A stretch of DNA of 64,000 bases from a virus (IMGVR_UViG_3300045988_037736:1-64000), one strand, 5' to 3'; positions 20,824 to 63,013 are shown, numbered from the stretch's first letter. The notes: generated from the letters alone by a model not told the origin. Numbers and translations are program-made.

Positions 20824-20874
20824 TTGTAATTGCACTTGCAATTGAAAAATTTTTCCTAACTTTACAAAAAAAAA

Positions 20875-42998: not shown

Positions 42999-43021
42999 AA
43001 TTTATAAATATTTTTAAGTTA

Positions 43022-44410
43022 TTACATACCACTAGATGCATCATCATCTGCTACTGTAGCAGGGGTTGATGAGCTACTCACCTTAGGAACAAGCCAGAAG
43101 TGGTCATCTACAGTTGTCTGTGTCTTCACAGCAATCTCTATCTCATTTACATCATAGCCAGTTCCTGCCAATCTTCTCCTTACATACTGTTGTTGAGTAG
43201 GACTCAACTGACTAAATTGTATATATTGGACATCTCCTGGGATAACATAACCTTCTTTATCCTCCTTATCCCCTCTAGAGTCAGGATTAGAAGCTTGTGC
43301 ATTATCTGCTCTCCAGTGAATGTTACCTAATGGCTTTCTTTGCGCTTTAGCTTTTGCAACTTCAGCAGCTGTTGGAGTAGGTGTTGGAGTAGGTGTTGTA
43401 GATTTCCATGTTACTCCATCAGACTGTAAAATTTCAGTCCATTGCAGCTTACCATTACTATAGAATTTAGTCTTGCCATCAGCAGAAATATAATAAGGTT
43501 TAGCTCCTGAAGCAATACTATCCTTCTCCTTAGCATACTCAAACTGGTCTCTTTGTAGCTGTACTGAGGCTGCTTGATTAGCAAGAGACTGTCTTTGTGC
43601 AGCATTGATATACTCGCCATTCTCAGTAAACTGATAGGTAGGCTTAGCAAGACCTGCATACATACCAGTAGTAACACTACTTAGAACTTGCTGTCTTGCA
43701 GCATCTCCCCAATCAGCAACATTGGCAAGTTCATCATCCATTATCTGTCTGAACCCTTGTAGCTTTGTTCTAAGAGCTTCTGATATATTTGGATTATTAA
43801 GCTGGTCATTTACTACAGCATAGAACATCTCAGGACTCATGCCATTCTGCTGAGTTATCTGATATTTCTGACCACCAAGAACTGTCTTAAATTCAGGGTC
43901 ACTGAATAATGACTTACCTAATGCTTCTGCTTTTGCAGATGTTCTTGCAAGTATATCCTTACCACTTACATAATCCTCACTTACTGTCTTTCCATGTAAG
44001 AAATCATCAAGGGAGAGATTCTCAACCTTGAATATAGCTGAGTTATCTCTTGCCCTTGTATCTCTCCTATATTTTATAGCTTCCTGTCTGGCAGCATCTG
44101 CTCTTGCAATAGGAGTAATCTCCTTTGCATATCTTCTTTTGAGACCAAGGAGCTGCCTTCTGTTAGCCATTGTCATTCCTCTACTGAAGTCATCAGTAAC
44201 AGTTTCTAAATCCTTAGCATATCTACTAAACATTGCATAGGCTTCAGGACTATTCTCCTGTGTTGCAATATCTCTGAATGCCTCAGTCTGAGTTGCAAGA
44301 TTTGCATACTGCTCTTCAGCTTCATTATAAGCTTTGGTGTAATCCTCTAGAGGCTTTACCAGCTGCTCATATGTAAAAGGATTAAACCTACTATTTACAA
44401 CTATATTCAT
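43022..44410 (-). CDS. hypothetical virion protein (462 aa)
   Basis: It contains a 'TPTPTPTPT' linker. It is separated from the upstream gene by TAA in the same frame. Confidence 0.35.
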   Translation of the reverse strand: MNIVVNSRFNPFTYEQLVKPLEDYTKAYNEAEEQYANLATQTEAFRDIATQENSPEAYAMFSRYAKDLETVTDDFSRGMTMANRRQLLGLKRRYAKEITPIARADAARQEAIKYRRDTRARDNSAIFKVENLSLDDFLHGKTVSEDYVSGKDILARTSAKAEALGKSLFSDPEFKTVLGGQKYQITQQNGMSPEMFYAVVNDQLNNPNISEALRTKLQGFRQIMDDELANVADWGDAARQQVLSSVTTGMYAGLAKPTYQFTENGEYINAAQRQSLANQAASVQLQRDQFEYAKEKDSIASGAKPYYISADGKTKFYSNGKLQWTEILQSDGVTWKSTTPTPTPTPTAAEVAKAKAQRKPLGNIHWRADNAQASNPDSRGDKEDKEGYVIPGDVQYIQFSQLSPTQQQYVRRRLAGTGYDVNEIEIAVKTQTTVDDHFWLVPKVSSSSTPATVADDDASSGM

Positions 44411-44413
44411 ATG

Positions 44414-47104
44414 TTAGAATGTTAAACCTCTTTTCTTTCTTTTAATCTTACCACCATAAGCTTCCTTTTGAACAGGAGCATAAACTCCATGTCTACTAGC
44501 CCATGTTCTCCATTTTCTATCAACTTTCTCCCTACCAATATCTCCAAGAGAACTGAAGATGTTTGATAAGTTATCAGAGATAGCTTGTTCTCTTGCAAGT
44601 CTAGCTCTTGACCTTATATCAGCAGCAGCCATTGTACCTCTTAATGAGAAGTCTCTAGCTCTTGATAATGCTTCTTGGTTGGCTATATCAGCTTGCAGGA
44701 ATCCTTGGGAGTTCTGAATATTTGTACCTCTATTGAACTCTTCAACTTGATTCCTTTGAGCAAGGTTATATTCTTCAGCCTGTCTTGCTAAAGCACCAAG
44801 CTGGTTTAGATAGTTATTATCAGCAGCAAGAATGCCTGCCATTGCAGTGGCTCTGTTACCTCCTGAAGTATTTAGTAGAGACCTTCTTGAGGCACCTGCC
44901 TCTGCATTCATCTTGTTAATGTAGTAATCCCTATCAAATGGTCTATAAGTTAGGTAGTTACCAATAGGTCTATACCTTACAGGTCTGTAAGCACCTTTAC
45001 CACTGCTTGCTTCAAGTATGGCTGAGACATCACCATCATCAGGCTTTGTAAACAATGAAGTTCCAAGACCTATGGCAGAGCCTAAGATAGGCATATACCT
45101 CATCCAATTATCATAGTTGGGGTATTCACCTCCATTATCAGTAAGGTCAGGGGCTTTCTCATCAGTAGGAGCTACAGCAGGTCTTTCCTTATAGAATAGG
45201 TCTGTATAATCTGTATCTCCTTCACTACTTGTTCCTGTCCTTACATACTGATATGTTCCAGTTGTTGGGTCATAGTCAGGAATAAGTAGGTCTTCCAAAG
45301 GAGTGCCACTAGCATCTGTTCTTCCTGTAAGATACATCCTCTTACCAGTCTTTCTTGGAGCTACTGGAACTGGACTACCTGCAAGGTCTATTCCTGCGTG
45401 CATACCACCCCAACTCTTGTCAGCTGTCCTTGAAGAGAAGATGTCTTTGGTAAGACCCTCTAGAGTAAGAGGCACATATCCTCTTCTTCCTTCATTATAC
45501 CTATTAACTGATTCAACATACCTAGGTAGCCATTGATTTACCTCATCACTTCCCCAGTTATTGATGACATAGTTCCTTCTTGTCATAAATGGAGAGTTAT
45601 CTCCATACATAATATCCCAGTCAATAGAGCCATTTGACTTATAGGGATTGAATCCTTCTTGACCAAAAGTAAGACCTGGAGTAGAGTTATTATAATTGAG
45701 AGTCTGCATCCAGCTACCTGTTTCATACAGGTGACCTCCTCTCGCAAACTTTCTCTCTTCTTTTCTTTCCCTTACCTGCTCCTGTACTTCCATCAACTTA
45801 GACATGCTGTCTATCATTCCTGCCCTACTTATAGGGTCATTAGGCCTCTCTTCAGATTCTTTGCTCATTTGAATAGCAGCATCTGCAAAGGTGAGAGGTT
45901 TTGTTCCTCTTAGTTTATATTTCTTTCTTACTGCTTTTGGAACTCTTAGTCTGTTACTAAATACATAATCATTGAAGATAACTTCTCCCTCTTCTACAAG
46001 GTTAGGAATGCCTTCAGCATCCATTCCCATAGGAACTCCTTCATTAGGGTTTTCTTCATGTGTACCTCCATTACCCACAAGAACAAGTCCTGTATCAAAG
46101 TCAGCTCCATGTGTCATAAGGTCTCCTCCAAAGGCATGATGCCACTTAGCAGCGTTCTAAGCAAATATAGCTCTCTTTCTAGTTAAAGGATTTTTACTAT
46201 GGGTTAATTCCTCTGTAGTCTTTCCTGTTCTCTTCTTAGTAGCATTGAACTTACCTCTATTCTCTGGGTTAATATGTATTCCTCCACCTTCTGCAAAGTA
46301 CAATGGACCTCCATATGAGGCTATGTTTCTAAGTATATCCCTCTTCCTAGTCTATCCTATATTATACTGTGCATTTTCTAAAGAAGAACTAACATATTGC
46401 CTAGCAGTATCAGCTCTTTTGCTCATATCCTAATATAAATCATCTATATCATGACTAAATGCACCCTAACTGCCTAAATCATCATGATTAAAGTATCCAA
46501 CTGTTGGAGCAGTAGCCATCTCCTAAGCTAAAGCATCATAATCAGTAGCACTTGATTTAAACTGTCCAGCCTGGGATATTTGATTATTTAAAGAACTTAT
46601 AAGTTTTTCATTTCTTTCAGAACCAAATAAGTTATTAGTAACTCCTCCAAGTAGCTAACTTGCTCCCATTACTATACCCCCAACCATTGGGTTTACAGAC
46701 ATTAAGGCTCCACCTACAGTTGAGCCTATACTACTAATTCCATTTCCTACTGCACTAGACCTTTTTCCTCCAATTACATTACCTACAATTGAACCAGTTA
46801 AGGCACTTCCTAGTCCTATACCCTGTTTGCCCAATTGAGTAAGTCCTAAGGATGGATTAGTAGTTCCAGATGGTGGAAGAGGAAGGGTTGCTGAAGCAGC
46901 AGTTGGTTGAGTAGTTTTAGTAAGAGCTTGCAGCCCTGTTGATATAGCTTCTCCAGGCATAGTTTCTCTAATACCAGGCATAGAAAAAGCATCATCCATA
47001 CCTGGTATTCCAGCTAGATAATCAGGAGTACCTCCCCATGCAAAATAATTATTCCTCCCAAAAAGGAGTTTATTTGTTCTTTTTTTAATAAGTTTCTTTG
47101 CCAT
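44414..47104 (-). CDS. large structural protein read through 6 in-frame TAG codons (~896 codons)
   Basis: The 149-aa and 567-aa ORFs are in the same frame. The 537-nt spacer 46118-46654 contains TAG at 46157, 46352, 46430, 46466, 46523 and 46655 as its only stops, with no TAA or TGA. The N-terminus is Gly-rich. It ends in TAA. Confidence 0.5.
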
Positions 47105-47167
47105 CTAAATGAATTTTGTATGCAAATGTAGCAAAAATATCCCACTAATACAATAGTATAATACAAT

Positions 47168-47209
47168 TAATTAAAAAGGTGTAAGGTTTTTCTTACACCT
47201 TTTTAATTA
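47168..47209. terminator. long perfect hairpin at the 3' end of the TAG-containing tail-fiber-like gene
   Basis: A 19-bp perfect stem 'aattaattaaaaaggtgtaag/cttacacctttttaattaatt' with a 6-nt loop 'gttttt'. It is AT-rich on both sides and overlaps the TAA stop at 47207-47209. Confidence 0.6.
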
Positions 47210-50200
47210 CATAGAGTACTTAGTAGATACATTATATATTGTCACTCTCTAGTTTTTATGTGAGGCACTCCCTAGAGTTATTTCACTCCATGGATTTCTA
47301 ATCCTTGCCCTACCATAGTGCCTTATAACATCTTTACCATCTTGTGCTACATAAGGAGACCTAGGAATATTAATCCTCCATATATTAAACTTCTTCCTTA
47401 TATCTCTACTATTAGTGAGGTCAGTATAAGCTTTCTAATAGTCATTCTCTGCTTGGATAAAATCAAATGGCTTATCAGAATTATCCTTTTGGTCAAAGTT
47501 CCGTACTTCAGCATTAACTTCCACTGTGTCAAAAATTTTTGTGTAAGGAGAATTACCATTAGATATATAAGTGAAACTAAATGGTTTAAAGTTACCATAG
47601 AACTCATTATATACCCCAGTGAAGTTCTCCCATAGCCTAACTTTATCCTATTCCTATTTTATAGAGTAAAAACCACCTTCAAAGTCAAACATACCTTCAG
47701 TTTCACCATAACTTAAAAAGGAAGTGAACTAGTTAAGCTTAGTTGAGAAACATAAAGCTTCTTCGCCATGAGCTGGAGAGAAATATACATCCCCATTCAT
47801 ATTATCAACAAAGCTTCTTACTCCCATTCCTGTAGGAGTCCACTCTGATAAGTCAACATCATTCTTAACCCACTAACTCATTCCTGAAAGCTCACTTACA
47901 TTTACTAATTCCTAACCATATCTATAAATACTTTTGGACTCGTTATCTATGAAGAATAGACCTGTTGAGGTAGGAATAATAGACCATTTATTAGCACATC
48001 CAATAGTAGAGGATAGAATCCTGAACCCATCTACTCTGTTTGAATTTCCTATCTCAATAGGTACTCCGTCTGTAGGATTGAGCTATACTCTAGAATTAAA
48101 CATAATCTAGCTAATAGATTTTTCCTAGAAGCCAATAAGAGTATCATTGATGGAGGTTAGACATGTTACAGACCCTTTATCAGCAGGAAGGTCTAAGGTA
48201 CTAGCTAAAGTGACATTAGTCCATGGGTCAATTATAGACTAGGGATTTTTCTTTAAGGACCATGCTACCTAGTAAGGAAATGTATCTATTTTATAATAGT
48301 CCTTGTCTAGTGTTCTGTAGTTAAAGAAGTTATCTAACTAAGAGTATACTTCATTTATCTTATAAGAGTCAGGAGTAATGTCGAAGTTGGATAGCTGCCC
48401 TCTTTTAGTATCGTATCTTCCATCAAGATTAATATGTGACTCAAGCATAAATGAACCTATTTCTACTATCTAATTAGTATCATCATCTGCAAAAGGATAA
48501 GTCTTTACACAATCATATCTTGTACACCATGTATCCCCATAGGCATAAGGAATCGTAATTATCTTATGTGGAGTTGATACAAGAGGAACTGACTCACTAC
48601 TTGGAACCCATAAGTTATTTTTGATAGCTTCATCCGATTTACCTCCAAACCTAGTGTCTGGGTCAACCCACTATGTTAATTCAGCTATAGGTAATGTGGG
48701 GGAATAATCTTTATCCTCTTCAAGTAACTACAGAGTGCTATTCTGGATGGTAAACGTATTATCTGTATTATCTGTAGATGGCTCTGAATACATTTTATAA
48801 GATGTAATACCAACTATATTTCCGAGAGATACCTTTAAGTTTAATAATACCTAATCCCCAAGATACTAAAAGTTATCATGACCATCCTGTAAGTTTTCAA
48901 AAGGACCCCATTTTATTGGCCCCGCATTCTGAAGAACTCCTACCCACTCACCATTTACATAGTGATGATAGATTATACATCCTTTCTTCACTAAAACAGT
49001 CACTTTAGTTCCTGAGTTTTGTACCTGCCAATACCCTACTTCTCCTATCTTTACCCTTTTAACCAATACACGCTTAGCTATGGGTCCAATGTAAGCCATT
49101 ACAATCTGATAGGTTCCTAGAGCAGTCACACTTGTATCGTCAACATCTAGTACTAAGTTCCCCTCTTTGTTATAAGTCCCATAAAAGGTTTTTGAGCCTA
49201 TAAATGAAAGGATAGGATATGAAGTACTGGTAGAAGTATTATTCTCCCATCCAGAGGGGGTATACTATGAAGTTATAGTCTCACCAGTAACAGAAGTGTA
49301 TGGTAGTACTGGAATAACCTTAGGGTTATCCTCATCATATAAAGAGAATACTAAGTGAGGAGATGATTTATACTTCATTCTTACTGACTCCCCAGAAGTA
49401 GGTACATTAGTAGGGGATACTTGTGAAATACTATCATCAGTACCAGCATAAATAGGATAAGCTGATGTGGCTGATACAATATCATCTACATTTCCAAAGT
49501 ATAGTACATCCTAGTCTAAATGTGGAACACGAACAGTTAAGCCTGTAACCTCTTTAGAAGAGAATAACTTAGGAGTTGTAATTTTAATATTGTGGTTATT
49601 AGAGTTAAAAAAAGTTGACTTACTTTCAAAATACTTTAAATTGGAAATAATCTTCCATTTTAGTATAGCTGTTCTATTTCCGGATTTCTCTATAATCTCA
49701 GGAGACCTGACAATATCATTATTTAGTGAGCCTGTTCTATGCCAAGGATAAACTAAATATTTAACAATACCTGTCTTATCATCATCTAAAAAATCCCCTC
49801 TTAGTATTTTATCTTCAAAACAACATGATGATACAAATCCTCCATTAACAGTAGTATTAGGAGTAGTACAGTTCACTGGAAATCCTACAGGATGATGTAT
49901 AAATCCTCCAGCCTGAGAACTAGCTTTAGAGGTCACTGCTAAATCTATATCTCCATACAATCCATGTAGGCTAGCGGCTCCAACAATATTTAGCCTTGCT
50001 CCTTCTAATTGAGTAGTATTTATATAGGACCCATACTCAATTTCTGGGGAATGTAAAGTAACTAAGTTACTATCAACAGCAAAAGTTGAATAATGAGACT
50101 TTATACCATCAGAGGGAGAAATAATTTCCTATATTGACTTATTGGAATCTCCTGGCAGAGATGACTATATTTCAGCACTTCTATTACCTCCACTGAAAAG

Positions 50201-51676
50201 TGTATAATTATGTTTATACTAAATAGTCGACCCCTAATCTATCGAGGTAGAGGTTTCTTTTGGCTTTCCATCTACATATACAGGAGATGGCCTAAAGAAC
50301 CAAGATGACATTGCATATGGGTTATTCATGTGCCTTCCTCTCACACTGTAGACAGTAGGATTTAAAACTCCCTAACATATAATATTTCTCTCCGCTGGCT
50401 TAGGGAAAACAACACAAGTTCTAGCCCTTCTTACTCCAGCTTTTAATAATGAGGCAGTTGCATTAGGGAATAACTAAAGTTCCTTAGTATCCACCCCGTC
50501 AGTAGTGCCCCAAAAATATGAATTATTTAACTCTACATCAAGAAAACCATCACCATCACCATCACTATTCCTTATGACTTTGTTTAATGGAATAGGTTCT
50601 GACCATTCTCCAGTCTTAAACTAAAATTGAACTCCTAATCTATATGTTTCTCCTGCCTTAAAATGACCAGGCTTAAACTATGGTAGATAAGGATAGTATT
50701 TATTTATACCCTAATTATCATAAGTATCTTCGGCTAAAAAACAATCTGTTAACCCTAAAGAGTCCCCATTTTCAGCCTCTTCCTATTGAAGTAATGTAGT
50801 TAGTTCTTTAGTATTTTTCTGAACAGTAATGTTTCCATAAAACATCACTCCTTCTTTGCTAGTGATAGTTCCAGCTAATATTGTTTGTCCCCCAGTATAT
50901 AATAGTTTAGCAGGGTCTTCTATTGAACCAGTAAGACCAGTATCTGTATATTCAATTGTTTTTACCAGCTAATCCTCAGAACCAAACACATCATACCAGT
51001 ATTCTCCTTCAGCACTTTCCTCCTAGCAATCTTTTAAGTCTAAGTCAGCTACAATCTTAACTGTAGGCTATGCGTCTAGTGAAGTTCTATGTATAGAATA
51101 AACCCTTATATAATCAAAGTTATCAACATTTTCTACTTTAATTGTGAAAGAAGTTATAACCTTCTCTTCTGGATTACCAGCTCTATCATAATTCCTTATA
51201 TACTATATGGGAGATACATAGAATATGTTACTTTCTTGCCCATACTTATTAAAGTATGTAAGAGCATATTGAATTACTCCAGGAGAAAATTCTCCATGAC
51301 TGGAACTTCTACCTACCAGTACTCTTTCTTTTAACTATAGGTTCTATACAAAATCAAATGGAGACTCAGCTCTGTATATCCAATTTCCTTTTTCATACCA
51401 CTTTTCTAGATTTTCTATAACTTCCTAGGAAACTCCCTCACTTTTCTATGGATTTGAGAAATTAACTCCGTCTACTATAACTTTACTAGCTATATCTTCA
51501 GGAAGTTTCAACTCTGGGGCAGTTATATTAATAACTCTAGGCTGGTTAATTCCATCTGTCCAATACAACTTATTCACAAGAACTGACTCACTATCCCCTA
51601 ATATTTCTAGAGGGTGATTAGCATCAAGACCTAGCACTCCTTCAAATAGAGTAACTTTAATCCACTCCCCTTTATC
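47207..51676 (-). CDS. very large tail-fiber/tailspike-like protein encoded with 39 in-frame TAG codons
   Basis: A single frame is open over ~4.4 kb (1477 codons). The only in-frame stops are 39 TAG, and it ends at TAA 47207-47209. It joins the track fragments 51446..51637, 49511..49960 and 48866..49129. The start is unresolved, because two in-frame TGAs lie upstream at 51677 and 51713. Confidence 0.5.
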
Positions 51677-51712
51677 TTCATGGAGTCTATATATTCTAGA
51701 TACTTCCTGAGT

Positions 51713-52024
51713 GTCATTCTAACTTACAGTAAATACTACTAAGTATCTATTAAGCACACAATGTCCTACGTACTACCCATCAAAAACAACACCAGTGTCC
51801 GTATTTCCCTTCTCATTAGTGATAGAAAACCCAGTATCACTATCCCTATTAGTAAGTCTCACATTTAAAGCATCCCATAAAAAAGACTCATCTTGTCTTG
51901 ATGGGTGAACATCTCTCCTTAGGCCTTTAAATATATGATTATCTGAATACATCATGTTAATATAATTAATGAAGTTTGATATACTCCTTAGAACCAAGAG
52001 TTTTAAACCCTTTGCTATGCTCAT
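51713..52024 (-). CDS. small hypothetical ORF, boundaries uncertain
   Basis: The 83-aa track ORF ends with TAG at 51773. It would extend 20 codons to TGA at 51713 if the TAG is read through. It overlaps the upstream gene's end. Confidence 0.2.
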
Positions 52025-52664
52025 TAGTCCTGGAGATTAAAGTATTCCAAGAATTAGTGAAAGATTGGAGTTGGTCAATAGAGGGCCTAACAAGGTCAGA
52101 CTGAGCTTGACCCACTGCCCAAGCATATTGTTGTTCTGCGTGTTGCAGAACCTGTTGAGTTATCCTACCAAGCTCAAACTGAACTGTAAAATGTTTTACC
52201 TTTATAAATAGCTCAAGTGCTTCCTCAAAAGAACCATTCTCTGGTATGAGAGGGAATCCTTCTTCATCTGTCGAGAAAGCTCTATAAGCTACTTCTATAG
52301 TTCCTTCCTTCATAGAAGTAAAAATACAACTTCCCTGTAGTTTATAGGTAAGGTCATTATCTCTTGTCTTATCAGGACTCATATGAAATGAATCAGTAGA
52401 GTATCTGAATACTTCATGAAGTACTCCATTACAGTTATGACCAACTGCTCTTACCTGTATCATTTCATAGAAGTCACAAGGTAGCTTACCTCTATAATTC
52501 TCTATCTCAACCTTCTCTGTTTTCTCAAGGAATATTGAGGGCATACCTACCTTCTGTATGAACCTGACAGCATAATTGACTGCCCTTTCTAAAGATAAAT
52601 CTTGTAGCAAGGGATTATCCATCAGGTTATCAAGAACTTGTCTTATGCTTATATATTTTGTCAT
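51966..52664 (-). CDS. hypothetical protein
   Basis: 232-aa ORF ending in TAA. Confidence 0.4.
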   Translation of the reverse strand: MTKYISIRQVLDNLMDNPLLQDLSLERAVNYAVRFIQKVGMPSIFLEKTEKVEIENYRGKLPCDFYEMIQVRAVGHNCNGVLHEVFRYSTDSFHMSPDKTRDNDLTYKLQGSCIFTSMKEGTIEVAYRAFSTDEEGFPLIPENGSFEEALELFIKVKHFTVQFELGRITQQVLQHAEQQYAWAVGQAQSDLVRPSIDQLQSFTNSWNTLISRTNEHSKGFKTLGSKEYIKLH

Positions 52665-53185
52665 ATCTTAAAAGCATCAAAGTTACCACTTTTAATTCTT
52701 TGCTTCAATCTCCTTTTAAGGTCTCTGTTCACTACAAATTCATAGAGGGATTTATTGTTGTAGTCTGCATCAATCCTGTTATAGTAGACCTTGAAGATTT
52801 CTTTTTCCTCCATTTTAATGAGTGTTCTTTCCTTATAGGCTTCCTCATCTTCTGACCATAGTTTAAGTGTTCTATCCCAGTCAATAGGAAGATTAGTCTT
52901 TACCTTTCCCTTCTCAACTGAGATTCTTACATCATACTTCCTTATCTCTATAGTACCCATTCCACATGGTAACTTTATATCATGGCCATGTATAAGTGAC
53001 TCGGCAAGAAGATTATTTATCCTTCTTATAATAGAGTAGAACTGATGTTCTGTAATAGGCTGTCCTATATCAAACCATTTGTTCTTTCTGATATACTTGT
53101 AGGCATCATATACTCCATATGAGTTATTCACTCTATAGACTCTTGACTCACTTACTTTAAGTACCTTCTTTCTGAACTCCTCCAT
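52661..53185 (-). CDS. hypothetical basic protein
   Basis: 174-aa ORF ending in TGA, with overlapping coupling to its neighbours. Confidence 0.35.
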   Translation of the reverse strand: MEEFRKKVLKVSESRVYRVNNSYGVYDAYKYIRKNKWFDIGQPITEHQFYSIIRRINNLLAESLIHGHDIKLPCGMGTIEIRKYDVRISVEKGKVKTNLPIDWDRTLKLWSEDEEAYKERTLIKMEEKEIFKVYYNRIDADYNNKSLYEFVVNRDLKRRLKQRIKSGNFDAFKI

Positions 53186-53864
53186 ATTTGAACTTGTATC
53201 CTCTGCAAAGCTTACCAGTCCTGCAACACTTACTTAACCATGATTTATCTACTCCTAGAGCTAAGGCTGCTTCTGTAGCTGATTTGTACACAGCTAGTAC
53301 TTCTCCCTCCCTATCAAGCATTTGTACAATCTTAGACATTGGTGAGTTCTCAGATATTTTCAACCTTTCACACATAGGTCTTTTCCTACCAAGATTTACT
53401 TGTCTAAGACATTCCTTTTGTTTCTCACTCATTTTCCATCCAGAACCTCTAGATGATTTTCCTCTATGGGCTATACTCAACTTCTTCTTATGAGATTCTG
53501 TAAGAGTACATCCCCTTCTCTTATTGGATTTTTCATAAGGAATCTTAATTCCTTTATTCCATGGGACATTCCCTGTGCATCCCTCCCCTCCATCTGTAAT
53601 ATTGAGACTAATCCCTAAATTCTTGTAATAGGCTATATATTGTTTCTCTCTATTTATAGCGTCTTGTTCTGTCATTCCAGTATAAAGTATTTCATGAGTT
53701 ATATTGTCCCATCCATACTTTATTATACTATTCTTAAATGGAGAGTTCTTACAATTAAAATACCCTTTACCATTATTCCATCTATGAAGAGGATTTTGGC
53801 TAGTTATGCCTATATATACTTTGCCAGATGGAGTAGTATGTTTATACAAACAATATTCTTTCAT
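53157..53864 (-). CDS. GIY-YIG homing endonuclease with NUMOD3 repeats
   Basis: The GIY-YIG core is 'CLYKHTTPSGKVYIGIT...RWNNG'. Basic NUMOD3-like repeats are 'KKKLSIAHRGKSS' and 'KQKECLRQVNLGRKRP'. Confidence 0.65.
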   Translation of the reverse strand: MKEYCLYKHTTPSGKVYIGITSQNPLHRWNNGKGYFNCKNSPFKNSIIKYGWDNITHEILYTGMTEQDAINREKQYIAYYKNLGISLNITDGGEGCTGNVPWNKGIKIPYEKSNKRRGCTLTESHKKKLSIAHRGKSSRGSGWKMSEKQKECLRQVNLGRKRPMCERLKISENSPMSKIVQMLDREGEVLAVYKSATEAALALGVDKSWLSKCCRTGKLCRGYKFKYGGVQKEGT

Positions 53865-54592: not shown

Positions 54593-54617
54593 ATATTTAT
54601 GATATTTATAAGTTTAT

Positions 54618-55286
54618 TTAACTACTATATTTCCATATAAACCCGCCAGAGGTTTTGTGCTCCCCATTTAGGCATTTATACAAGGAAGCTTCAGCTATAC
54701 CAGTACATAAACTAGCTTCCTTAACTGAAGGAAAGGACTGTATCAACTCTTCTTCTAAAGAAAACTGTAGTACGCCCTTTATGGTTTTAGCCTTTATTAT
54801 CTTATCAGACCAAGTACAGGGTCTTCCTTTCAGAGACTTACTGATATTATTTCTCCATTCTTCTGTAAGCTTTACTCCCCTACGAACTAATGATAGCTTC
54901 TTTTTAACCTCATCAGTTCTCTTCTTTCCTCTGTTAGCTATAGAAATTCTATTTTTGGACTCTGTAGAAAATTTGTAGCCAACGGTGGAGTCCCCTCCTA
55001 TTGTGCAATTATATCCATGCACATAAGAGTTATATAGTCCTATGTAATATACTTCCAGCTTGTCAAGTTCTTCTTTAGCCTGCTTTTTAGAACTAAATAT
55101 TCTCTTTTCTAAAACTTCATATTTGAAGGACTCCAAACCATATTTAATTCTAGCCCTATTTATTTTAATTCCAGCATATGGCCCGACAGTGTTCCAATGC
55201 TCCCTTCGTATTTTCTCGTTAGTAGTCTGACCTATGTAAGATTTTCCACTTGGAGAAACATATCTATATATAACACCTTCAACCAT
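54618..55286 (-). CDS. GIY-YIG homing endonuclease with NUMOD3 repeats
   Basis: The GIY-YIG core is 'GVIYRYVSPSGKSYIGQTTNEKIRREHW'. Repeats are 'KNRISIANRGKKRT', 'KKKLSLVRRGVKLT' and 'RNNISKSLKGR'. Confidence 0.65.
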   Translation of the reverse strand: MVEGVIYRYVSPSGKSYIGQTTNEKIRREHWNTVGPYAGIKINRARIKYGLESFKYEVLEKRIFSSKKQAKEELDKLEVYYIGLYNSYVHGYNCTIGGDSTVGYKFSTESKNRISIANRGKKRTDEVKKKLSLVRRGVKLTEEWRNNISKSLKGRPCTWSDKIIKAKTIKGVLQFSLEEELIQSFPSVKEASLCTGIAEASLYKCLNGEHKTSGGFIWKYSS

Positions 55287-55363
55287 ATTCTGTATAATTA
55301 AAATGCTCCTGCAAAGGTAAGCATTTTTTACTTATCCTGCAAGAGCATAATAATTTTTATTTT

Positions 55364-55609
55364 TTACTGTATACAAGTTCCTTTACATGAATCATAAGGA
55401 ATGAGGCAGCTTCCTTGTAGGCAAGAAAGTGCTCTCTCTATAATATACTTCTGTTCAGAAGTTAAAGAGGTCTCCTTACTCAGCTCTGTAATATAAGTCA
55501 GTACTAGAACAGAGAATGTGTCACTATCAGGAATATAACCTACTTGAGACAATCTCTTAAAGTACCTGTTGAGAGTGTCATATAGTTTATTATCTTCCAT
55601 TGCATCCAC
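55364..55609 (-). CDS. hypothetical small protein
   Basis: 81-aa ORF ending in TAA. Confidence 0.3.
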   Translation of the reverse strand: MDAMEDNKLYDTLNRYFKRLSQVGYIPDSDTFSVLVLTYITELSKETSLTSEQKYIIERALSCLQGSCLIPYDSCKGTCIQ

Positions 55610-56105
55610 ATCCTTTTAGAGTTGTTCCTTTTACCATTGTGAGCATCTTCCAGTACTTAATAGCAGTACTATAGTTGCAAGTAGCTATAGCCATATCAAG
55701 AGCATATCTGTTAAGTATGAAATCAACAAAGCCCCTTGATATTTCACAGGTATCCCCAAGCTCTTTAAGGTATCCAAGCCCCTTATCTATCAAGATATTT
55801 CTATCATAAATAGCTGCCATATCAATGACATCAGCTCCACAAGGAGTATCAGGAGGAAGAGATATGTGGACTATAGGAGTGATGATAAGAAGTTCTTTCT
55901 TGGCATCTGGGATAAAGATTTCTGTCGTATACTGAGTTACATCGTCTCCATCACAGAGATGATATGGAGTATCAGTTCCATAGGTGAGAGGAGTGTCAAC
56001 CCTGACACCTTTTATACTTAGATTGCTATAGTAAGGCTTATCTTCTATCTCAAAGTCTATTATGAGCTTGTTACCATCTATCTGTAGCTTATTATACTTT
56101 ATCAT
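55590..56105 (-). CDS. hypothetical protein
   Basis: 171-aa ORF ending in TAA. Confidence 0.35.
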   Translation of the reverse strand: MIKYNKLQIDGNKLIIDFEIEDKPYYSNLSIKGVRVDTPLTYGTDTPYHLCDGDDVTQYTTEIFIPDAKKELLIITPIVHISLPPDTPCGADVIDMAAIYDRNILIDKGLGYLKELGDTCEISRGFVDFILNRYALDMAIATCNYSTAIKYWKMLTMVKGTTLKGCGCNGR

Positions 56106-56107
56106 AG

Positions 56108-56146
56108 TGTATAAAATAAAAAAGGGAGGCTTTTGACCTCCCTTAT
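56108..56146 (-). terminator. intrinsic terminator downstream of the 346-aa structural gene
   Basis: A GC stem 'gggagg/cctccc' with the loop 'cttttga' sits immediately after the TAA at 56149. On the minus-strand RNA it is followed by 'UUUUUUAUUUU'. Confidence 0.55.
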
Positions 56147-56148
56147 GA

Positions 56149-57189
56149 TTAGGCTAGTTCTGCAACCTGTACCTTAGAGGCTTCAGCAAACTGACCAATG
56201 AGCTTGTTTAGCTGTGCCTTGTCAGCACATACAATAGTGATGTCCTTCTCTGACCTTTGTGGTCCTTCATTGGGACCTACATAAGCATAGTGGATTTCAA
56301 GAACATTGTATGCAGTGTCAGGGTCAACAAGATACTTGGTTGGAATACTGTTAGGCCATCCAATATTTCTGTATTGGTCACCTCTTTCACCCATGCAGAA
56401 GTACTCAAGGTCTGCAATTATTCTACCATTGTTTCTTACAGTAGTGGAGTCACTTACTGTTACTGCACCCCACTTAACTTCTTCACCATCAAAGGTTACT
56501 GTAGTAGGAGTAACTGTGAAGTTAACTTTAGTCTGTTCCTTGATACCAAGAGTCCAGTCCTGCTCTACTTCTGTGATAGTAACACCATCAGCATAATCTT
56601 CAGCTACTGTGATAGCTGCACCAGTAGTGTCAATAAGAGTTTCCTCACCATTAACATCTGTCTTTACTCTACCTACAACCTTTCCAGCTATAGTGAACTC
56701 AAGCATCTTGCCAAGTTCTCTGCTGAAATTCTTGTAGAGAGAAGCTGCAAGCTTAGTATAGAACTGGGCAGGAGTCATAGTTCTTGTAGCATGAACAGCA
56801 CCATACTTGAAGTAGGGTTCCCCATCTGACATTCCTACATAAGGATTGATACAGATTCTAAGGATATAGTCCTGACCTCCAATAGGATTGCCTTCATTGA
56901 CACTAGCATCAAGCTTAACTACAGCCTGCTTAAGTGCATACTTCTGAGTAGCAGCCTCTGCACTTACAGCTTTGGCATAGAGAATATTGTCTATGTTGAT
57001 GAGGTCACTCCTCATAAGGTTATCAGCCCCCTTATACTGGAAGTATAAGTTCTTACCTTCAGCATCAGCCTTGAGAGCAATGGTACCAGCAGCATCTGAC
57101 TCACTCACCTTACCATCTGTCTTCTTTGCAGTACCTTGAACTGCTGTGACTACATAAAGTTGTCTTACTTGGTTAGTTGAAAATACCAT
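56149..57189 (-). CDS. abundant structural protein candidate (346 aa)
   Basis: It is followed by its own terminator. No internal TAG. Ends in TAA. Confidence 0.4.
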   Translation of the reverse strand: MVFSTNQVRQLYVVTAVQGTAKKTDGKVSESDAAGTIALKADAEGKNLYFQYKGADNLMRSDLINIDNILYAKAVSAEAATQKYALKQAVVKLDASVNEGNPIGGQDYILRICINPYVGMSDGEPYFKYGAVHATRTMTPAQFYTKLAASLYKNFSRELGKMLEFTIAGKVVGRVKTDVNGEETLIDTTGAAITVAEDYADGVTITEVEQDWTLGIKEQTKVNFTVTPTTVTFDGEEVKWGAVTVSDSTTVRNNGRIIADLEYFCMGERGDQYRNIGWPNSIPTKYLVDPDTAYNVLEIHYAYVGPNEGPQRSEKDITIVCADKAQLNKLIGQFAEASKVQVAELA

Positions 57190-57208
57190 AATTTATTTTA
57201 TTAAGTTT

Positions 57209-57904
57209 TTACTTACCTGCACTGGCTCTACTCTTCAAGGCAAGGCTAACTGCCATTTCTAGTATCACTCTATGTATTGCAGGGTTTAATTTACATTCAG
57301 TTGCTTTTGTTAATCCATTGATAGAAAGACCTTCAGGTAAATCAATAAGGATGATAGGTTCTGGCTTTGACAGGTATCTAATCTGGTACTCATCTATGTT
57401 GAATGCTGAGATAAGTTCAACTGTATATCCTTCAATATCAAGCCTTAATACTCTCCTCTTGTTGGGCATTCTGAATGGATTCCTTTTGGTTTTATAGAGT
57501 TCATCTTGAGTGACAGGAACTACTTCCATTATAGAACCTTTAGCACAACCTAACTTAACATCTTGAGATGTTACAGCCTCATAGGTTATAAACCAGGTAT
57601 CTTCAGGAATATTGAAGAAGTATGAGTCTCTTGTAAGACCTTCCCCTTCCACCTTGTCAGTGGTGGAGTAGGTCTTTACAAGACTGCTCAAATATCTTCT
57701 GAGTTCCTCTGTCTTCTCGAATGAATCTCCTGTAAGGTTTCCATTGTAGAGTGATATGACTATACTCTCTTGTGCCTTTGTAAGGAACATTGACTTTTCA
57801 TATTCATCAAACTCCAATGGCATAGAGTCTACACCAAATGGCTTGATGATGGAGTTGCTGTTGACTAGATTGTCAAATTCATTTGAGAACTCTTCGTTTG
57901 TCAT
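57209..57904 (-). CDS. hypothetical structural protein; TAG-free tandem paralogue
   Basis: 231 aa. Its N-terminal 'EFSNEFD...DEYEKSMFLTKAQ' is shared with the adjacent TAG-containing gene. Confidence 0.45.
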   Translation of the reverse strand: MTNEEFSNEFDNLVNSNSIIKPFGVDSMPLEFDEYEKSMFLTKAQESIVISLYNGNLTGDSFEKTEELRRYLSSLVKTYSTTDKVEGEGLTRDSYFFNIPEDTWFITYEAVTSQDVKLGCAKGSIMEVVPVTQDELYKTKRNPFRMPNKRRVLRLDIEGYTVELISAFNIDEYQIRYLSKPEPIILIDLPEGLSINGLTKATECKLNPAIHRVILEMAVSLALKSRASAGK

Positions 57905-57906
57905 AA

Positions 57907-58680
57907 TTATCTACTTTGAGTTACAATACCCATATTAGTCTGTGATGTCTGACCAAGAGCAACCTGTGAAGTAAGGTCTCCAATATAAGCAGCCTTAGCT
58001 AGCTCACAAGCTCTTTGAATAATCTCTGGAAATAGTATTGGGTCAAGCTCACAACATTCCTCACTACTCTCACCTCCTATAGTAAGACCGTCAAATGTAC
58101 TTAGTCTAATAGCTTTAGGACGTCTAACAAATCTATAGGTATAACTAATTAAGGAATCCTAATATCCTAAAATTAATTCAACTTTCTTTCTATTACTGTC
58201 AGAAATAAGCAATCTCCAAGCTTGGTTTTTTAGAGGATATTTGTAAGGTTTGCTAGTGAGTCTATTATACTCCAAGTAACTAATAGGGATAACAGTTAAT
58301 CCAGTTTCGTTATTACCTCTCTAAACTGTAACATACTCGTTGATAAACATGAATATATCATCTTGAAGGATGATACTTTTACTGCTTTTTCTATTGTCAA
58401 AGTGTGCATCTAAAAAAGAGTCTGCATCTGCTATTGTACGGTCTCTCATGAGCATAGAGAAATCAATCTACCTTATCTCACTTCCGTCAAAACCTTCTTG
58501 AGACTTATTAGTTTTTGGACTAAAATAAGCTTTTACTACTTCATCTTGAGCCTTAGTTAGAAATACAGACTTCTCATATTCATCCAAACCAGGAGCCTGA
58601 TTACTTGTAATGCTGTTGTAAATTATATCAAACTCATTACTAAATTCCTAATTTCTTATTCTTCTTTCTTCCGCAGTCAT
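57907..58680 (-). CDS. TAG-containing paralogue of the preceding gene (257 codons, 4 in-frame TAG)
   Basis: The frame is open from ATG 58678 to TAA 57907. Its only stops are TAG at 58648, 58468, 58321 and 58159. It translates to 'MTAEERRIRN*EFSNEFD...LDEYEKSVFLTKAQ', homologous to 57209..57904. Confidence 0.5.
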
Positions 58681-58719
58681 AAGGTTTTCAATTTGCGACA
58701 TGTAACTTAAAGATTAAAG

Positions 58720-59115
58720 TTACTGCCTTAACTTAGCCTCAAGAGAAAATTTAATTTCTTGATGCTTGGGATTATTAAGATACTTGGCTGCTATGTTGAG
58801 TGTAGGTTCTTCATTAGCTTCACATAATGGGGCATTATCACTCCTTAGATATAGATAATTTCCTCTATTAGAGATAAGACCTGCTTCAATAGCTTTCCTA
58901 ATAAGGACTTTGGTAGGAAGCATTGGGTCTGTAATAGCTCTAAGGAAGATTTTACTATCTGCTTGGATAAGGTCATTAGCCTTGGTCTGTAAGAACTCAA
59001 GCTTAGATGTAGAAGCAAGGGGTCTACCATCAATAGTTTCAATGATGACTCTCAGTGTATCTGCATCTTCCTCTATCTTACCAAACTCCTTATAGCACTT
59101 CATTGTAGTACTCAT
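58720..59115 (-). CDS. hypothetical protein
   Basis: 131 aa, ending in TAA. It is in the same frame as the upstream ORF, separated by one TAG and 24 open codons. Confidence 0.35.
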   Translation of the reverse strand: MSTTMKCYKEFGKIEEDADTLRVIIETIDGRPLASTSKLEFLQTKANDLIQADSKIFLRAITDPMLPTKVLIRKAIEAGLISNRGNYLYLRSDNAPLCEANEEPTLNIAAKYLNNPKHQEIKFSLEAKLRQ

Positions 59116-59187
59116 GTTAACCTTAGCATTCTTAGTTTCATCACCTTCAGAAATGATTACAAACTGATAGCTTGCCTTGGGAGCATC

Positions 59188-59715
59188 CTATAGTGCCTCA
59201 AGTGAGGGAGCAATATAGTTCTTATTAGCTAGAAGAATCTTATATCTGATATAATCTTCTGGGTCTGCCAGATTAAAATAATTATCTTGCTTGGTAAGTC
59301 TTACCCTTGAGATACCCTTATCATTTGTGTCATCCCAGAAGTTATCTGTTTTTCTATAGATAGATAGAGCATTTACCTCAAGTCTCATGATATGTTCAAG
59401 GAAAGCCTTTTCATCATCTGTCAGTACATTCACGTACATACCTGAGCTTAACCTAGGTACTGTAAATGTCTTGGTAGCATTCTCGGCCATACCTCCATAG
59501 AGTATATGTTTGGGATTAGTAATCATACCACCAAGCTTGGGTATATGTCTCACAATGATTCTTTCATTTCTTAAGCAGTTTATTAGCTGCTTTGGTGCTC
59601 TTCTTGCGGGCTGTTCCTCAACTATAGGAACAACTTTTGGCACCTCTTGTAGAGGCAACTCATCAGATAGGTCAATCTGAGCTACATCTATTTCTTCCAT
59701 ATTTTTCTTTGCCAT
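59188..59715 (-). CDS. hypothetical protein
   Basis: 175 aa, preceded by AAGGAG. Its TAG stop at 59188-59190 may be read through into 58720..59115. Confidence 0.35.
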   Translation of the reverse strand: MAKKNMEEIDVAQIDLSDELPLQEVPKVVPIVEEQPARRAPKQLINCLRNERIIVRHIPKLGGMITNPKHILYGGMAENATKTFTVPRLSSGMYVNVLTDDEKAFLEHIMRLEVNALSIYRKTDNFWDDTNDKGISRVRLTKQDNYFNLADPEDYIRYKILLANKNYIAPSLEAL

Positions 59716-59740
59716 ATCTTCTCCTTATGAAGTTAAAGAA

Positions 59741-59768
59741 AGGGGAAGAGAGAATTGCTCTCTCCCCC
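59741..59768 (-). terminator. stem-loop terminator downstream of the putative major capsid gene
   Basis: 'ggggaagagag-aattg-ctctctcccc' forms a 10-bp stem with one bulge, located directly after the TAA at 59778. Confidence 0.5.
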
Positions 59769-59777
59769 TTATTTTGT

Positions 59778-61292
59778 TTAGCCCTGTAGTATAGCAGGGA
59801 TAAGTGACATTGTTCTAGTTGGGTCAAGAACACAAATACCAAGAGTAGCCATCCTATGGAAGGTAGCTGAATCTTCATCATATGACATGAATTGATTACC
59901 AAGCTGACCTGTGAAAGGATTTCTCAATCCCCATTGATAACCTCTGAACTCCTCTTGTCCCTTAATCTTACACTTGAAGATATTGGGCTGGTCCATAGTA
60001 CCAATGTACATGATGTCATACCTGTAAGAGAAGGCAGGTCCACCATCAGGGTGTTGTACCTTGTTTCTTATTGGGTCATCATAGTATGGGTCAACATCAA
60101 GCTTCACTCTTACACCATTAGGTGCCCTGTACTCTACAAACTGGAAGCCAGCTGCAAGAGCATTAGTATGAAGATTGCTTTGTGTCTTCTCAACAACATT
60201 CAGAGCATCACCATTAAGTGTGAACTGAGTCCATCCACTTACAGTCTGAAGTACAGCCTTATGGAATTGTATAGCACCTCTTTCACCTGTCTTAATGACG
60301 AAGTACCTATCACCAAAGTCAAGCTTGGATGCAGACAGTTCATATAGGGCATCTTCAAGAAGTTTCAGGCTGAACTTGTTGTAGTACTGAGTATTAGCTA
60401 CCTCCATCTGTTCAAACAGACCAGCACCCATCTTAATAACTTCACCTGACTTACCAAAGTTCAGATACTCTCCATTGTTGTTTCTGTTGCTTCTACCAAA
60501 GGCAAGAATGTTATTCTTGTATTCAGAGAATGTCTGTTCAACTTCCCAGTCAACATAGTGCATCCACATGTTAACTACAGACTTAGTGTAACCTGTAGGA
60601 GTTTCCTTTGTTACAGGAATACCACATGCAAGTTTCTTGTTGAGCATATTGCCAGGCACCTTATGTTGGATTCTGATGGTAGACCATTCATTTCTCATAG
60701 ATACAGGAGAAGTGAATCTAACATCACCAACTTTCCTTGAAAGTGCTCTTTCTACAGGAGCATATTCATAGCTGAATCTTTCTCCTGGAAGGAGTCTTTC
60801 AGCAGGAATACCTTGGGTAATACCACCCATTAGCTCTACCTTGTAAACTGCATTAGTACCTTCCATTCTCGGATTACCAAGAATCCTCATGGGATATACT
60901 TCATTCAGATTACCTACAATTACTTCACCATCAGCAAACCAGTCCTCAGGGAAGACAAGCTCAAACACAGCTGTACCAACACCTACATTGGCAGTAGTTG
61001 CTGCGGTTACTACATTGCCATTCTCATCTCTTGCCTCAAGCAGAGGAATATTCCTTCTGGTAGAGCCAATTACATCCCAGTAATATTCTGAGTCATCTTC
61101 AAACTCTTTTGTAGGGAACTGGCTTAGGAAGGTATCAAGAGTCTTACCTCTGTACCAAGCTAATAGCTGTACCATTAGGTTAGTTGCCTTCTGTGGAGCA
61201 AGCTGGAAGATTTGACCAAGGTGGTTGTCCTTTGTCAGACCTTTCCAGTGAGAAAAGCCAATCATTTGGAACTTATTCAGTTTTCCAGCCAT
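59778..61292 (-). CDS. putative major capsid protein (504 aa)
   Basis: The size matches crAss-like major capsid proteins. It is immediately downstream of the acidic scaffold-like gene and followed by a terminator. Assignment is by size and synteny only. Confidence 0.4.
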   Translation of the reverse strand: MAGKLNKFQMIGFSHWKGLTKDNHLGQIFQLAPQKATNLMVQLLAWYRGKTLDTFLSQFPTKEFEDDSEYYWDVIGSTRRNIPLLEARDENGNVVTAATTANVGVGTAVFELVFPEDWFADGEVIVGNLNEVYPMRILGNPRMEGTNAVYKVELMGGITQGIPAERLLPGERFSYEYAPVERALSRKVGDVRFTSPVSMRNEWSTIRIQHKVPGNMLNKKLACGIPVTKETPTGYTKSVVNMWMHYVDWEVEQTFSEYKNNILAFGRSNRNNNGEYLNFGKSGEVIKMGAGLFEQMEVANTQYYNKFSLKLLEDALYELSASKLDFGDRYFVIKTGERGAIQFHKAVLQTVSGWTQFTLNGDALNVVEKTQSNLHTNALAAGFQFVEYRAPNGVRVKLDVDPYYDDPIRNKVQHPDGGPAFSYRYDIMYIGTMDQPNIFKCKIKGQEEFRGYQWGLRNPFTGQLGNQFMSYDEDSATFHRMATLGICVLDPTRTMSLIPAILQG

Positions 61293-61320
61293 AAATAAAT
61301 TGATTATTGGTTATATTTTA

Positions 61321-61557
61321 TTAAGCATCAATGGTCCAGCCCTTACCTATGAAGGATTCTGAATCAACTCCACTTGCATAGTTAAGATTACCATCTGAGG
61401 TTCTAGCAGTATTGTTTAGAGTATTTTCCAGTTCTCTGAACCCTCTCTTTACTTCTTTTCTTACTTTACCTTTTACAAGTCCATCAAGATTCTTGAAGCC
61501 ATCTGTAAGTGTGAATATAAGACCAAGGTTCTTTAAGAACTCTGTCCTATGTTCCAT
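61321..61557 (-). CDS. hypothetical small protein
   Basis: 78 aa. It is in the same frame as the scaffold-like gene, 3 codons after that gene's TAG. Confidence 0.3.
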   Translation of the reverse strand: MEHRTEFLKNLGLIFTLTDGFKNLDGLVKGKVRKEVKRGFRELENTLNNTARTSDGNLNYASGVDSESFIGKGWTIDA

Positions 61558-61566
61558 TTCATATCT

Positions 61567-62475
61567 CTAAATGGCAGTAAGCATTTCTCCTGTCTCAGGG
61601 TCTTTATATACAGGCTTGGCAAGATTGTCATATATTCTTTGTCTTGTTGCCTTGTCAACTTCTACATCACCAAAGACTTTCTTCTCAGTGAGAATAGATG
61701 TTCTCAGCTTCTCAGCCTGTTCCTTCCTCTTTGCTACTTCTGCCTCTTCCTCTTTCTTGGCATCTTCAATTACTTCCTCATATTTGGACTTGAAGTATTC
61801 CTTGTTGCTTTTCAAAGCCTCTCTTGCATCATCTACATCAGTACCTCCATTAAGGGATTTCTGAACTTCTCTTGAAGCTCTTTCCTTACTGTAACCCCTA
61901 TTAATGAAGTCCTGATATATTAGCTGTTTCCTCAGCTTCTCTCCTTCATCAGTCTCAGCTGCAATAGAGTCATCCTTGATACTGTCAAGATAGTTGATGG
62001 CACCTTCATACTGCCTGATAGTATCAGGTTCCACTCCAACATTGAGAGCCTCATCAATCCTCTTCTGTCTTTCATCAAGACCAGCTTTAATCTGTTGCTC
62101 TACAAGCTCTCTTAAGTCTTCAGGAGTTTCTACTTTAGAAATGGCTTCTTCATCAAGGTCTGGGAAGATACCTTCCTCTGCAAAGGCTTTGGCAATGGAA
62201 GAGTAAATTTTGGGAGAAGTACTGCCTTTGTCAGGGTCAGTATCTTCCTTTTCCTCTGTATCTCCACTACCTACGCTCTCTGGTTTGTCTGTAAACAAGG
62301 AGTCTACATTAACCTCAGTAGTTTCTTTTTCTTTCTTTTCTTTGCCCTCTACGAGCTCATCTTCTTTTTCTTTACCTGTATCATCAGGTGCAGGCTCCTG
62401 TGATGTGTCATCATCTATGAACAGGTTCTCTACCTCAGAGCCTGTCAGAATGTTATCTAGTGATAGTTCTTCCAT
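61567..62475 (-). CDS. scaffold-like highly acidic/charged protein (302 aa)
   Basis: It is Glu/Lys/Asp-rich with predicted coiled coil ('EKEDELVEGKEKKEKETTEV...'). It sits directly upstream of the putative major capsid gene. It terminates with TAG (61567-61569). Confidence 0.35.
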   Translation of the reverse strand: MEELSLDNILTGSEVENLFIDDDTSQEPAPDDTGKEKEDELVEGKEKKEKETTEVNVDSLFTDKPESVGSGDTEEKEDTDPDKGSTSPKIYSSIAKAFAEEGIFPDLDEEAISKVETPEDLRELVEQQIKAGLDERQKRIDEALNVGVEPDTIRQYEGAINYLDSIKDDSIAAETDEGEKLRKQLIYQDFINRGYSKERASREVQKSLNGGTDVDDAREALKSNKEYFKSKYEEVIEDAKKEEEAEVAKRKEQAEKLRTSILTEKKVFGDVEVDKATRQRIYDNLAKPVYKDPETGEMLTAI

Positions 62476-62610: not shown

Positions 62611-62862
62611 TTATAGCTCAGCTATATTATAGAGTGCTTCATTGAGTATCTGCATAGCTGTTTCACCACTAAGTATTGCAGCTTCCTCAGAGTAAGGATT
62701 AATGTCAAGAGCCTCACATATGTGCATTTCAAGATGATTCTTTTCATGCTCAAAGGTGTTAACAAATTCTCCTACACTCGAAGCCTTATGTATGACTATA
62801 AGTGAGAACTTCTTATAGAAGCTTGAGTATATGAAACCTGTATCAAGTTCCGAGTTCATCAA
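62611..62862 (-). CDS. hypothetical small protein
   Basis: 83-aa ORF ending in TAA. Confidence 0.3.
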   Translation of the reverse strand: MMNSELDTGFIYSSFYKKFSLIVIHKASSVGEFVNTFEHEKNHLEMHICEALDINPYSEEAAILSGETAMQILNEALYNIAEL

Positions 62863-63013
62863 GTTCCTTTCCAGTTTCTCAAAGGTTTCTTTGTCAGGCT
62901 GAAGCTCTTTAAGTTCAGTGACTATCTCAGTCTTCTATTTCTCATCTACAGTGTAATATATTACTACATCCCAGTCATACTTCCTTATCTTGAACTGCTG
63001 CCTGAGACCCATA

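Follow-up and report, generated by a model that had tools for sequence, protein, structure and literature searches.

We analysed a 64,000-nucleotide stretch of viral DNA (IMGVR_UViG_3300045988_037736:1-64000, hereafter the window), in which some of the late, minus-strand genes contain in-frame TAG codons, and considered how these codons are decoded and where they came from. Judged by gene content and gene order, the window is part of a crAss-like, Steigviridae-like gut phage related to crAss001 (a Bacteroides phage, Kehishuvirus primarius, NC_049977); the size of the source genome is about 100 kb. From position 62475 to 35826, the minus strand is collinear with crAss001 genes gp31 to gp47, and both phages have the muzzle, ring, cargo, and virion RNA polymerase modules. 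Pfam and PHROG matches identified capsid, auxiliary capsid, tail hub A and B, ring 1, 2, and 3/4, muzzle, cargo 1 and 2, and giant virion RNA polymerase proteins (the Pfam families being Crass_capsid, crAss_MUZ, CrAss_Ring_1/2/3_4, crAss_AuxCP, crAss_CARG1, and crAss_CARGO2). Between the major capsid protein and crAss001 gp32, identity is 78%. Replication and early genes occupy the plus strand (1-35768), where two giant genes come after them. The features of the late strand that are relevant here are listed below.

47207-51955, minus strand: muzzle protein gene (crAss001 gp44 orthologue), 1582 codons with 40 TAG, core of the apparently imported TAG-rich module
44414-47104, minus strand: cargo protein 1 gene (gp45 orthologue), 896 codons with 6 TAG, Pfam crAss_CARG1
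57907-58701, minus strand: tail ring protein 3/4 gene (gp34 orthologue), 4 TAG, Pfam CrAss_Ring_3_4
58720-59715, minus strand: gp33 orthologue, a single gene for 331 amino acids, one TAG at codon 176 (59190-59188)
61321-62475, minus strand: gp31 orthologue, a single gene for 384 amino acids, one TAG at codon 303 (61569-61567)
62611-63099, minus strand: late open reading frame (ORF) of 162 codons, one TAG at codon 55 (62937-62935)
35826-44410, minus strand: TAG-free backbone late genes for virion RNA polymerase (gp47 orthologue) and cargo protein 2 (Pfam crAss_CARGO2)
59778-61292, minus strand: major capsid protein gene, no TAG, PHROG 11589 (394 bits)
46160-51955: TAG-rich block, apparently foreign, with 46 of the 53 in-frame TAG codons of the window's late strand

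In-frame codons were counted in minus-strand ORFs, with TAG taken as sense. The muzzle frame defined in this way (47207-52024) contains all 40 TAG codons of the gene, and homology places the true start at 51955 (MMYSDNHIF...), not at 51676. The six TAG codons of the cargo-1 gene lie within codons 150-316 (46657-46157), and a CrAss_Ring_3_4 match (170 bits, residues 16-239) covers all four in the ring-3/4 gene. There is no TAA or TGA in any of the TAG-containing frames; at 35% GC content, about 1,600 codons free of both cannot be due to chance. No in-frame TAG was found in the genes coding for proteins of 2390, 2283, 1456, and 504 amino acids. The RNA polymerase gene has no TAG versus 133 CAA or CAG codons, and its two non-coding frames hold 73 and 62 TAG. 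TAG and CAA/CAG codons numbered 40 versus 22 in the muzzle gene and 13 versus 324 in the other late-block genes (Fisher p = 7e-28). Sense TAG is restricted to the late strand, and the large plus-strand genes contain none in frame. The patchiness of TAG in the late block, noted in an original prediction made from the sequence alone, was thus borne out, but the codon is not strictly limited to three late genes, as had been claimed, because single TAGs also occur in 58720-59715, 61321-62475, and 62611-63099.

Alignments with related phages show that TAG encodes glutamine (Gln) in the late genes. TAG-free relatives have CAG at gp33 codon 176, at gp31 codon 303, and at codon 55 of the 162-codon ORF (in the latter case, in contigs L095 and L097); the single TAGs are derived. 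Codon 303 of gp31 is polymorphic within the species, being CAA in contigs L003-L006 and L094 and TAG in L007 and L008, and it is CAG in crAss001. Portal codons 701 and 790, outside the window, are TAG in this phage and CAG in a relative. CAG, CAA, or TAG is found in relatives at four of the six cargo-1 TAG positions and at two of the four in ring-3/4, where codon 78 is either CAG or TAG. In the alignment with crAss001, TAG is paired with Gln more often than with any other residue (13 of 38 aligned positions); unlike the window, the aligned crAss001 genes need no sense TAG and have Gln codons where the window has TAG. In an alignment of 12 muzzle sequences, Gln occupies 12-18 of the 40 TAG columns (30-45%) in the six closest relatives, three of them recoded and three TAG-free. 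CAA and CAG together make up 1.4% of muzzle codons, a share that rises to 3.9%, which is in the normal range, when TAG is included; TAG therefore accounts for 65% of the muzzle Gln codons.

ARAGORN found no tRNA gene in the 64-kb window, which agrees with the original prediction that none is recognisable there and that an amber suppressor tRNA is encoded elsewhere. The latter was found in the nearest public genome, IMGVR_UViG_3300045988_064014 (contig L013), which is 98.6% identical to the window over a 2-kb muzzle stretch, 100% identical in 500-nucleotide windows across the muzzle block, and has all 40 of the muzzle TAG positions. A tRNA with anticodon CUA is encoded at 1298-1370 of this contig (ARAGORN; Rfam 55 bits, full length), on the late strand, about 18 kb past the window end; the terminase, portal, tail, and head genes lie downstream of it. 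In the acceptor and D arms, the tRNA is similar to tRNA-Gln(UUG) of related phages. The gene lies within an insertion of about 418 nucleotides, directly upstream of tRNA-Thr, that is absent from the nearest TAG-free relatives. We infer that tRNA(CUA) is also present in the window's own source genome. ARAGORN labels the tRNA 'Pyl'; pyrrolysine decoding was rejected, given that TAG aligns with Gln and that the tRNA resembles phage tRNA-Gln, though no search for pyl genes was made.

Eighty related portal loci were surveyed, 46 of which cover the tRNA site. The CUA tRNA was present in two of the 46, L013 and the more distant L075, which have 35 and 41 in-frame TAGs in long ORFs, respectively; all other full-length loci have at most eight. 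An exact search for the suppressor tRNA returned only the one IMG/VR contig and no match in JGI metagenomes, and there was no match in GTDB genomes when the third anticodon base was left free. The species is represented by many contigs (about 100), two of which, from Logan, are 100% identical to window positions 1-11248. A complete contig of the same strain is logan:ERR636403_27182 (101,424 bp), in which the window corresponds to about 34,907-98,906 on the reverse strand. The 100%-identical contig L009 has four tRNA genes (Arg-CCU, Arg-UCU, Lys-UUU, and Pro-CGG) at 1212-6805, upstream of the window start, dispersed between genes of the early strand and apart from the main late-strand tRNA array.

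The nearest lineages outside the species are represented by four IMG/VR contigs, 031323 (L095), 025205, 042591, and 049815 (together L095-L098). Every late gene in them is free of in-frame TAG, and no CUA tRNA was found in their scanned tRNA arrays. The backbone of the window phage is 85-99% identical to TAG-free, suppressor-less relatives. The amino acid identity of individual window proteins to those of L095-L098 was as follows.

Capsid: 98-99%
gp33: 92-94%
gp43: 89-92%
gp31: 87-90%
Polymerase N-terminus (to L095): 86%
Cargo-1: 52-69%
Ring-3/4 (57907-58701): 57-61%
Muzzle: 35-45%

The region of the RNA polymerase and cargo-2 genes (35826-44410) is 84-86% identical to L095 at the amino acid level. 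Among 16 genes compared, the three most divergent are the three multi-TAG genes. Two tandem ring-3/4 paralogues, about 30% identical to each other, follow the same pattern: 57209-57904 is TAG-free and 77-87% identical to its counterparts in TAG-free relatives, while 57907-58701, with its four TAGs, is 57-61% identical. A 500-nucleotide sliding comparison revealed that positions ~46160-51955 are largely unalignable to TAG-free relatives, and are 65-76% identical, over most of their length, to fully recoded contigs L106-L108. Below ~46165, similarity to 031323 returns (82-92%), at the same point where the cargo-1 TAGs end. From this comparison we conclude that there is a recombination breakpoint near 46160, coincident with the last cargo-1 TAG.

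Among 5.8 billion proteins, the muzzle protein matched its own 99% cluster (46 members), then three proteins at 50-53% identity, the rest being near 40%. The genomes that encode the three homologues have TAG in most of their late genes (25-32 in muzzle, 11-12 in cargo-1, 8-12 in cargo-2, and others in rings and endonucleases). In IMG/VR, only contig 064014 was matched by the muzzle protein. Outside the window, ORFs of the tail-fibre region with 3, 10, and 14 TAGs have little or no counterpart in TAG-free relatives, and the portal, with two TAGs, is 89-96% identical to theirs. In modules of the apparently imported type, TAG makes up 19-65% of Gln codons. The genome is a mosaic, and the divergence of the three multi-TAG genes, together with the presence of the nearest muzzle homologues in recoded genomes, supports the proposal, made in the original prediction, that TAG-rich modules were horizontally acquired.

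Within the recoded species, window positions 46165-52664 and 58665-60164 are 100% identical to 064014 at the nucleotide level in 500-nucleotide windows, with flanks at 82-98%, and the cargo-1 C-terminus and cargo-2 of 064014 are essentially unrelated to those of the window (30% amino acid identity). The identical stretches point to a very recent module exchange, or to a sweep, inside the species. The terminase frame of the same contig (L013 5407-9900) has an insertion of about 360 amino acids (residues ~398-757) that contains TAG codons and is absent from relatives, possibly an intein or an endonuclease insertion.

We consider it very likely that this crAss-like phage decodes TAG as Gln with its own tRNA(CUA), encoded outside the window, and that the patchiness is mainly due to swapped-in modules, with a few in-place changes. 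A standard-code backbone would have gained the suppressor cassette and TAG-rich modules from long-recoded phages. The conversion of the lineage would be recent, sister lineages having neither the suppressor nor in-frame TAG. The tRNA(CUA), with its gene beyond the window and at the 5' end of the strand that bears the late genes, would be charged with Gln by a host enzyme and read TAG as Gln; the code would switch late in infection, and suppression would be efficient enough for 40 TAGs in a single gene. The TAGs would have two sources. The muzzle gene and the front of cargo-1, as well as ring-3/4, would have been replaced by versions evolved in long-recoded phages, and the tail-fibre genes outside the window likewise; isolated in-place CAG-to-TAG transitions would account for the TAGs of the backbone (gp31, gp33, the 162-codon ORF, and the portal outside the window). 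The RNA polymerase, capsid, and cargo-2 genes would have yet to acquire TAG. Early genes have stayed readable under the standard code, with TAG stops backed by nearby TAA or TGA.

Several points weigh against this reading. The suppressor was observed in the relative IMGVR_UViG_3300045988_064014, not in the window's own genome. A scan for the release-factor motif GGQ[HNA][VI]N, limited to the motif, found no match when all six frames of the window, L008, L009, and L013 were translated (~93 kb, leaving ~5.7 kb of the genome uncovered); a phage release factor 2, or other manipulation of release factors, is an accessory trait that some code-15 phages have and others lack. Forty TAGs in one protein need near-complete suppression. 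The donor lineage of the muzzle gene is unsampled, the best match outside the species being 53% identical at the amino acid level. GC content was dropped as a marker of foreign origin: it is not discriminating because the muzzle genes of different lineages vary between 0.28 and 0.47 in GC, and low values are also seen in neighbouring genes without TAG. Shared TAG positions were likewise no longer taken to prove that the window's muzzle gene and the recoded ones have a common ancestor, since the 4-10 of 40 in common are about what conserved Gln sites give and could simply reflect such sites. Finally, selection for TAG in particular genes, as proposed by Borges et al., could act on top of the historical pattern.

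A first alternative, close to the delay or tuning of a subset of late proteins in the original prediction, is that the patchiness is adaptive: TAG would be enriched in muzzle, ring, and tail-fibre genes so that their products are made after the suppressor accumulates, and the other late genes, needed earlier or in bulk, would be TAG-free. The confinement of sense TAG to the late strand and the position of the suppressor at the 5' end of that strand are as expected, Borges et al. found a few crAss-like gene families (lysis, tail tube) that prefer TAG over CAA/CAG, and the capsid gene of the recoded L106-L108 has 0-2 TAGs while most of their late genes have several, which fits avoidance in the most highly expressed gene. 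However, TAG density tracks the ancestry of a segment and not its function. The ring paralogues have four and zero TAGs in step with their divergence, the cargo-1 TAGs stop at the recombination breakpoint, and cargo-2, ring-1, and homing endonuclease genes, which are TAG-rich in recoded lineages, are TAG-free here. In sister phages, the corresponding genes lack TAG altogether. We regard adaptive timing as rather unlikely. Read-through was suggested by the original prediction for two ORF pairs, 61567-62475 with 61321-61557 and 59188-59715 with 58720-59115, which might be fusions or C-terminally extended variants, that is, programmed units yielding a short and an extended product. Each pair is in frame and split by one TAG, and incomplete suppression early in the late phase would give truncated gp31 and gp33 forms as by-products. 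Yet each pair corresponds to one orthologue: residues 3-384 of the one align to crAss001 gp31, residues 10-331 of the other align to crAss001 gp33 (62% identity), and homologous family matches run across the TAG (PHROG 16383 in the case of gp33). In crAss001 and in TAG-free relatives, the gp31 and gp33 orthologues are uninterrupted and of equal total length, and the stop is not conserved, TAG being aligned with CAG or CAA and, in gp31, replaced by CAA in members of the same species. Programmed read-through is thus quite unlikely. Only under the standard code do the two late ORFs that were said to end in TAG stop there, each being the front portion of one longer gene; because TAG stands for Gln, both pairs are ordinary genes with one TAG-encoded Gln each.

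The host might supply TAG decoding, as a natural suppressor or through an alternative code of its own, making the phage tRNA irrelevant; the window itself indeed contains no tRNA. We find this very unlikely, since TAG is a genuine stop in the early genes, close relatives (85-99% amino acid identity) avoid in-frame TAG completely, and TAG load and phage-encoded tRNA(CUA) go together in related genomes. Still less credible is the possibility that the TAG-containing genes are pseudogenes, or that a recoded and a standard-code phage were joined into a chimera during assembly of the window, even though a standard gene caller breaks these genes up and lists just short fragments for the muzzle region. 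The 1582 muzzle codons include neither TAA nor TGA, a 99%-identical protein gives a full-length Pfam crAss_MUZ match (797 bits), the virion of crAss001 depends on the muzzle protein as an essential component, and the 99%-identical cluster of the window's muzzle protein has 46 member sequences. The same arrangement is seen in independent assemblies from different samples; the same gp46 protein occurs on eight independent contigs longer than 50 kb, and in the one displayed, the gene order is that of the window, the other seven being grouped with it as similar.

Decoding by a phage-encoded tRNA(CUA), as preferred here, has well-described parallels. Recoded late blocks and the 5' position of the suppressor have been reported (PMC7886860; bioRxiv 10.1101/2021.08.26.457843; 10.1101/2022.06.29.495998), and a suppressor at the 5' end of the recoded strand was found for 303 code-11/15 phages (Mgcod, Pfennig et al. 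2022). Code-15 crAss-like phages (Ivanova 2014; Borges et al. 2021/2022; Peters et al. 2022; Mgcod) resemble the window phage in that TAG is read as Gln, in-frame TAG occurs on the late strand only, the early block is readable under either code, and, as in the window's nearest relative, the Sup-CUA tRNA gene occupies the 5' end of the strand that is recoded. In typical members (L106-L108, L075), TAG is found across most late genes, whereas most late genes of the window phage are TAG-free, including the one for the 2390-amino-acid RNA polymerase with its 133 Gln codons. Yutin et al. (2021, Nat Commun 12:1044, PMC7886860) described a genome of the beta group in which, unlike in its closest relatives, TAG began to build up after a TAG suppressor had been gained. 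This genome, OFRY01000050, belongs to a crAss001-type (beta group) phage like that of the window, and was described as an ongoing progression toward an alternative code; compared by description, it may belong to the lineage of the window or represent a separate, parallel instance. Its authors stress accumulation in place (for example, in the terminase gene), while in the window 46 of the 53 late-block TAGs lie in a replaced module.

Late-gene TAG-to-Gln recoding in crAss-like phages, suppressor tRNAs, and early blocks neutral to the code are thus established, and no new mechanism is revealed here. The modest addition is that, by the comparison with sister lineages, most TAGs in this phage came inside swapped modules. 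Tentatively, the suppressor cassette (~0.4 kb) may act as a compatibility key: structural modules laden with TAG would be of no use to a standard-code crAss-like phage, but with tRNA(CUA) it could take up the muzzle, ring, and tail-fibre alleles of recoded lineages. If so, differences in genetic code would hinder recombination between phages that circulate together, and the import of modules would contribute as much as point mutation to the spread of recoding. The window would be a snapshot of module import, and the 100%-identical muzzle block in otherwise diverged genomes would mark a recent sweep. That code compatibility limits module exchange among gut phages is suggested, and unproven. The imported muzzle, ring, and tail-fibre modules may bear on host interaction. 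The phage provides a clean early-stage example of code change, in which the sister comparison separates imported TAG-rich modules from in-place TAGs. For annotation, the standard code fragments or misses muzzle, cargo-1, ring-3/4, gp31, and gp33, and applying code 15 to the late strand restores the full crAss001 gene set.

On the plus strand, TAG serves as a terminator in a cluster of small early genes (19161-21897), as follows.

19161-19352, plus strand: early gene ending in TAG
19339-19767, plus strand: early gene ending in TAG, DUF3310 (Pfam, above the curated cut-off)
19925-20092, plus strand: early gene ending in TAG
20070-20630, plus strand: early gene ending in TAG, radical-SAM-like (Pfam match below the cut-off)
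20632-20823, plus strand: early gene ending in TAG, HicA-like (Pfam 37 bits, above the cut-off), 63 amino acids
21628-21897, plus strand: early gene ending in TAG, thioredoxin (Pfam, above the cut-off)

The TAG stops at 19352, 19767, 20630, and 21897 had been predicted and were confirmed; those of 19925-20092 and 20632-20823 are further cases. A backup TAA or TGA follows 1-11 codons past the TAG stop in the five early genes checked. In 35 plus-strand genes, the stop codon was TAA in 16, TGA in 14, and TAG in five. The early and replication genes are open under the standard code. The HicA-toxin-like ORF (20632-20823) overlaps the end of the radical-SAM-like gene.

Several endonuclease genes and insertions were also observed. 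An HNH/NUMOD4 endonuclease gene lies in the early block (20875-21444, plus strand), and two GIY-YIG/NUMOD homing-endonuclease genes (53157-53864 and 54618-55286, minus strand) lie between tail-ring genes, their presence varying among close relatives. The ThyX (thymidylate synthase) gene (22436-24268, plus strand) codes for 610 amino acids, and its Thy1 domain match is restricted to residues 460-605; a LAGLIDADG endonuclease-like insertion at about residues 268-299 is probably an intein. Capsid genes are interrupted in the relatives L095/L096 (1872-4220) and L107 (1246-3594), and one of the gaps holds an HNH/NUMOD4 endonuclease gene, which looks like an intron-type insertion.

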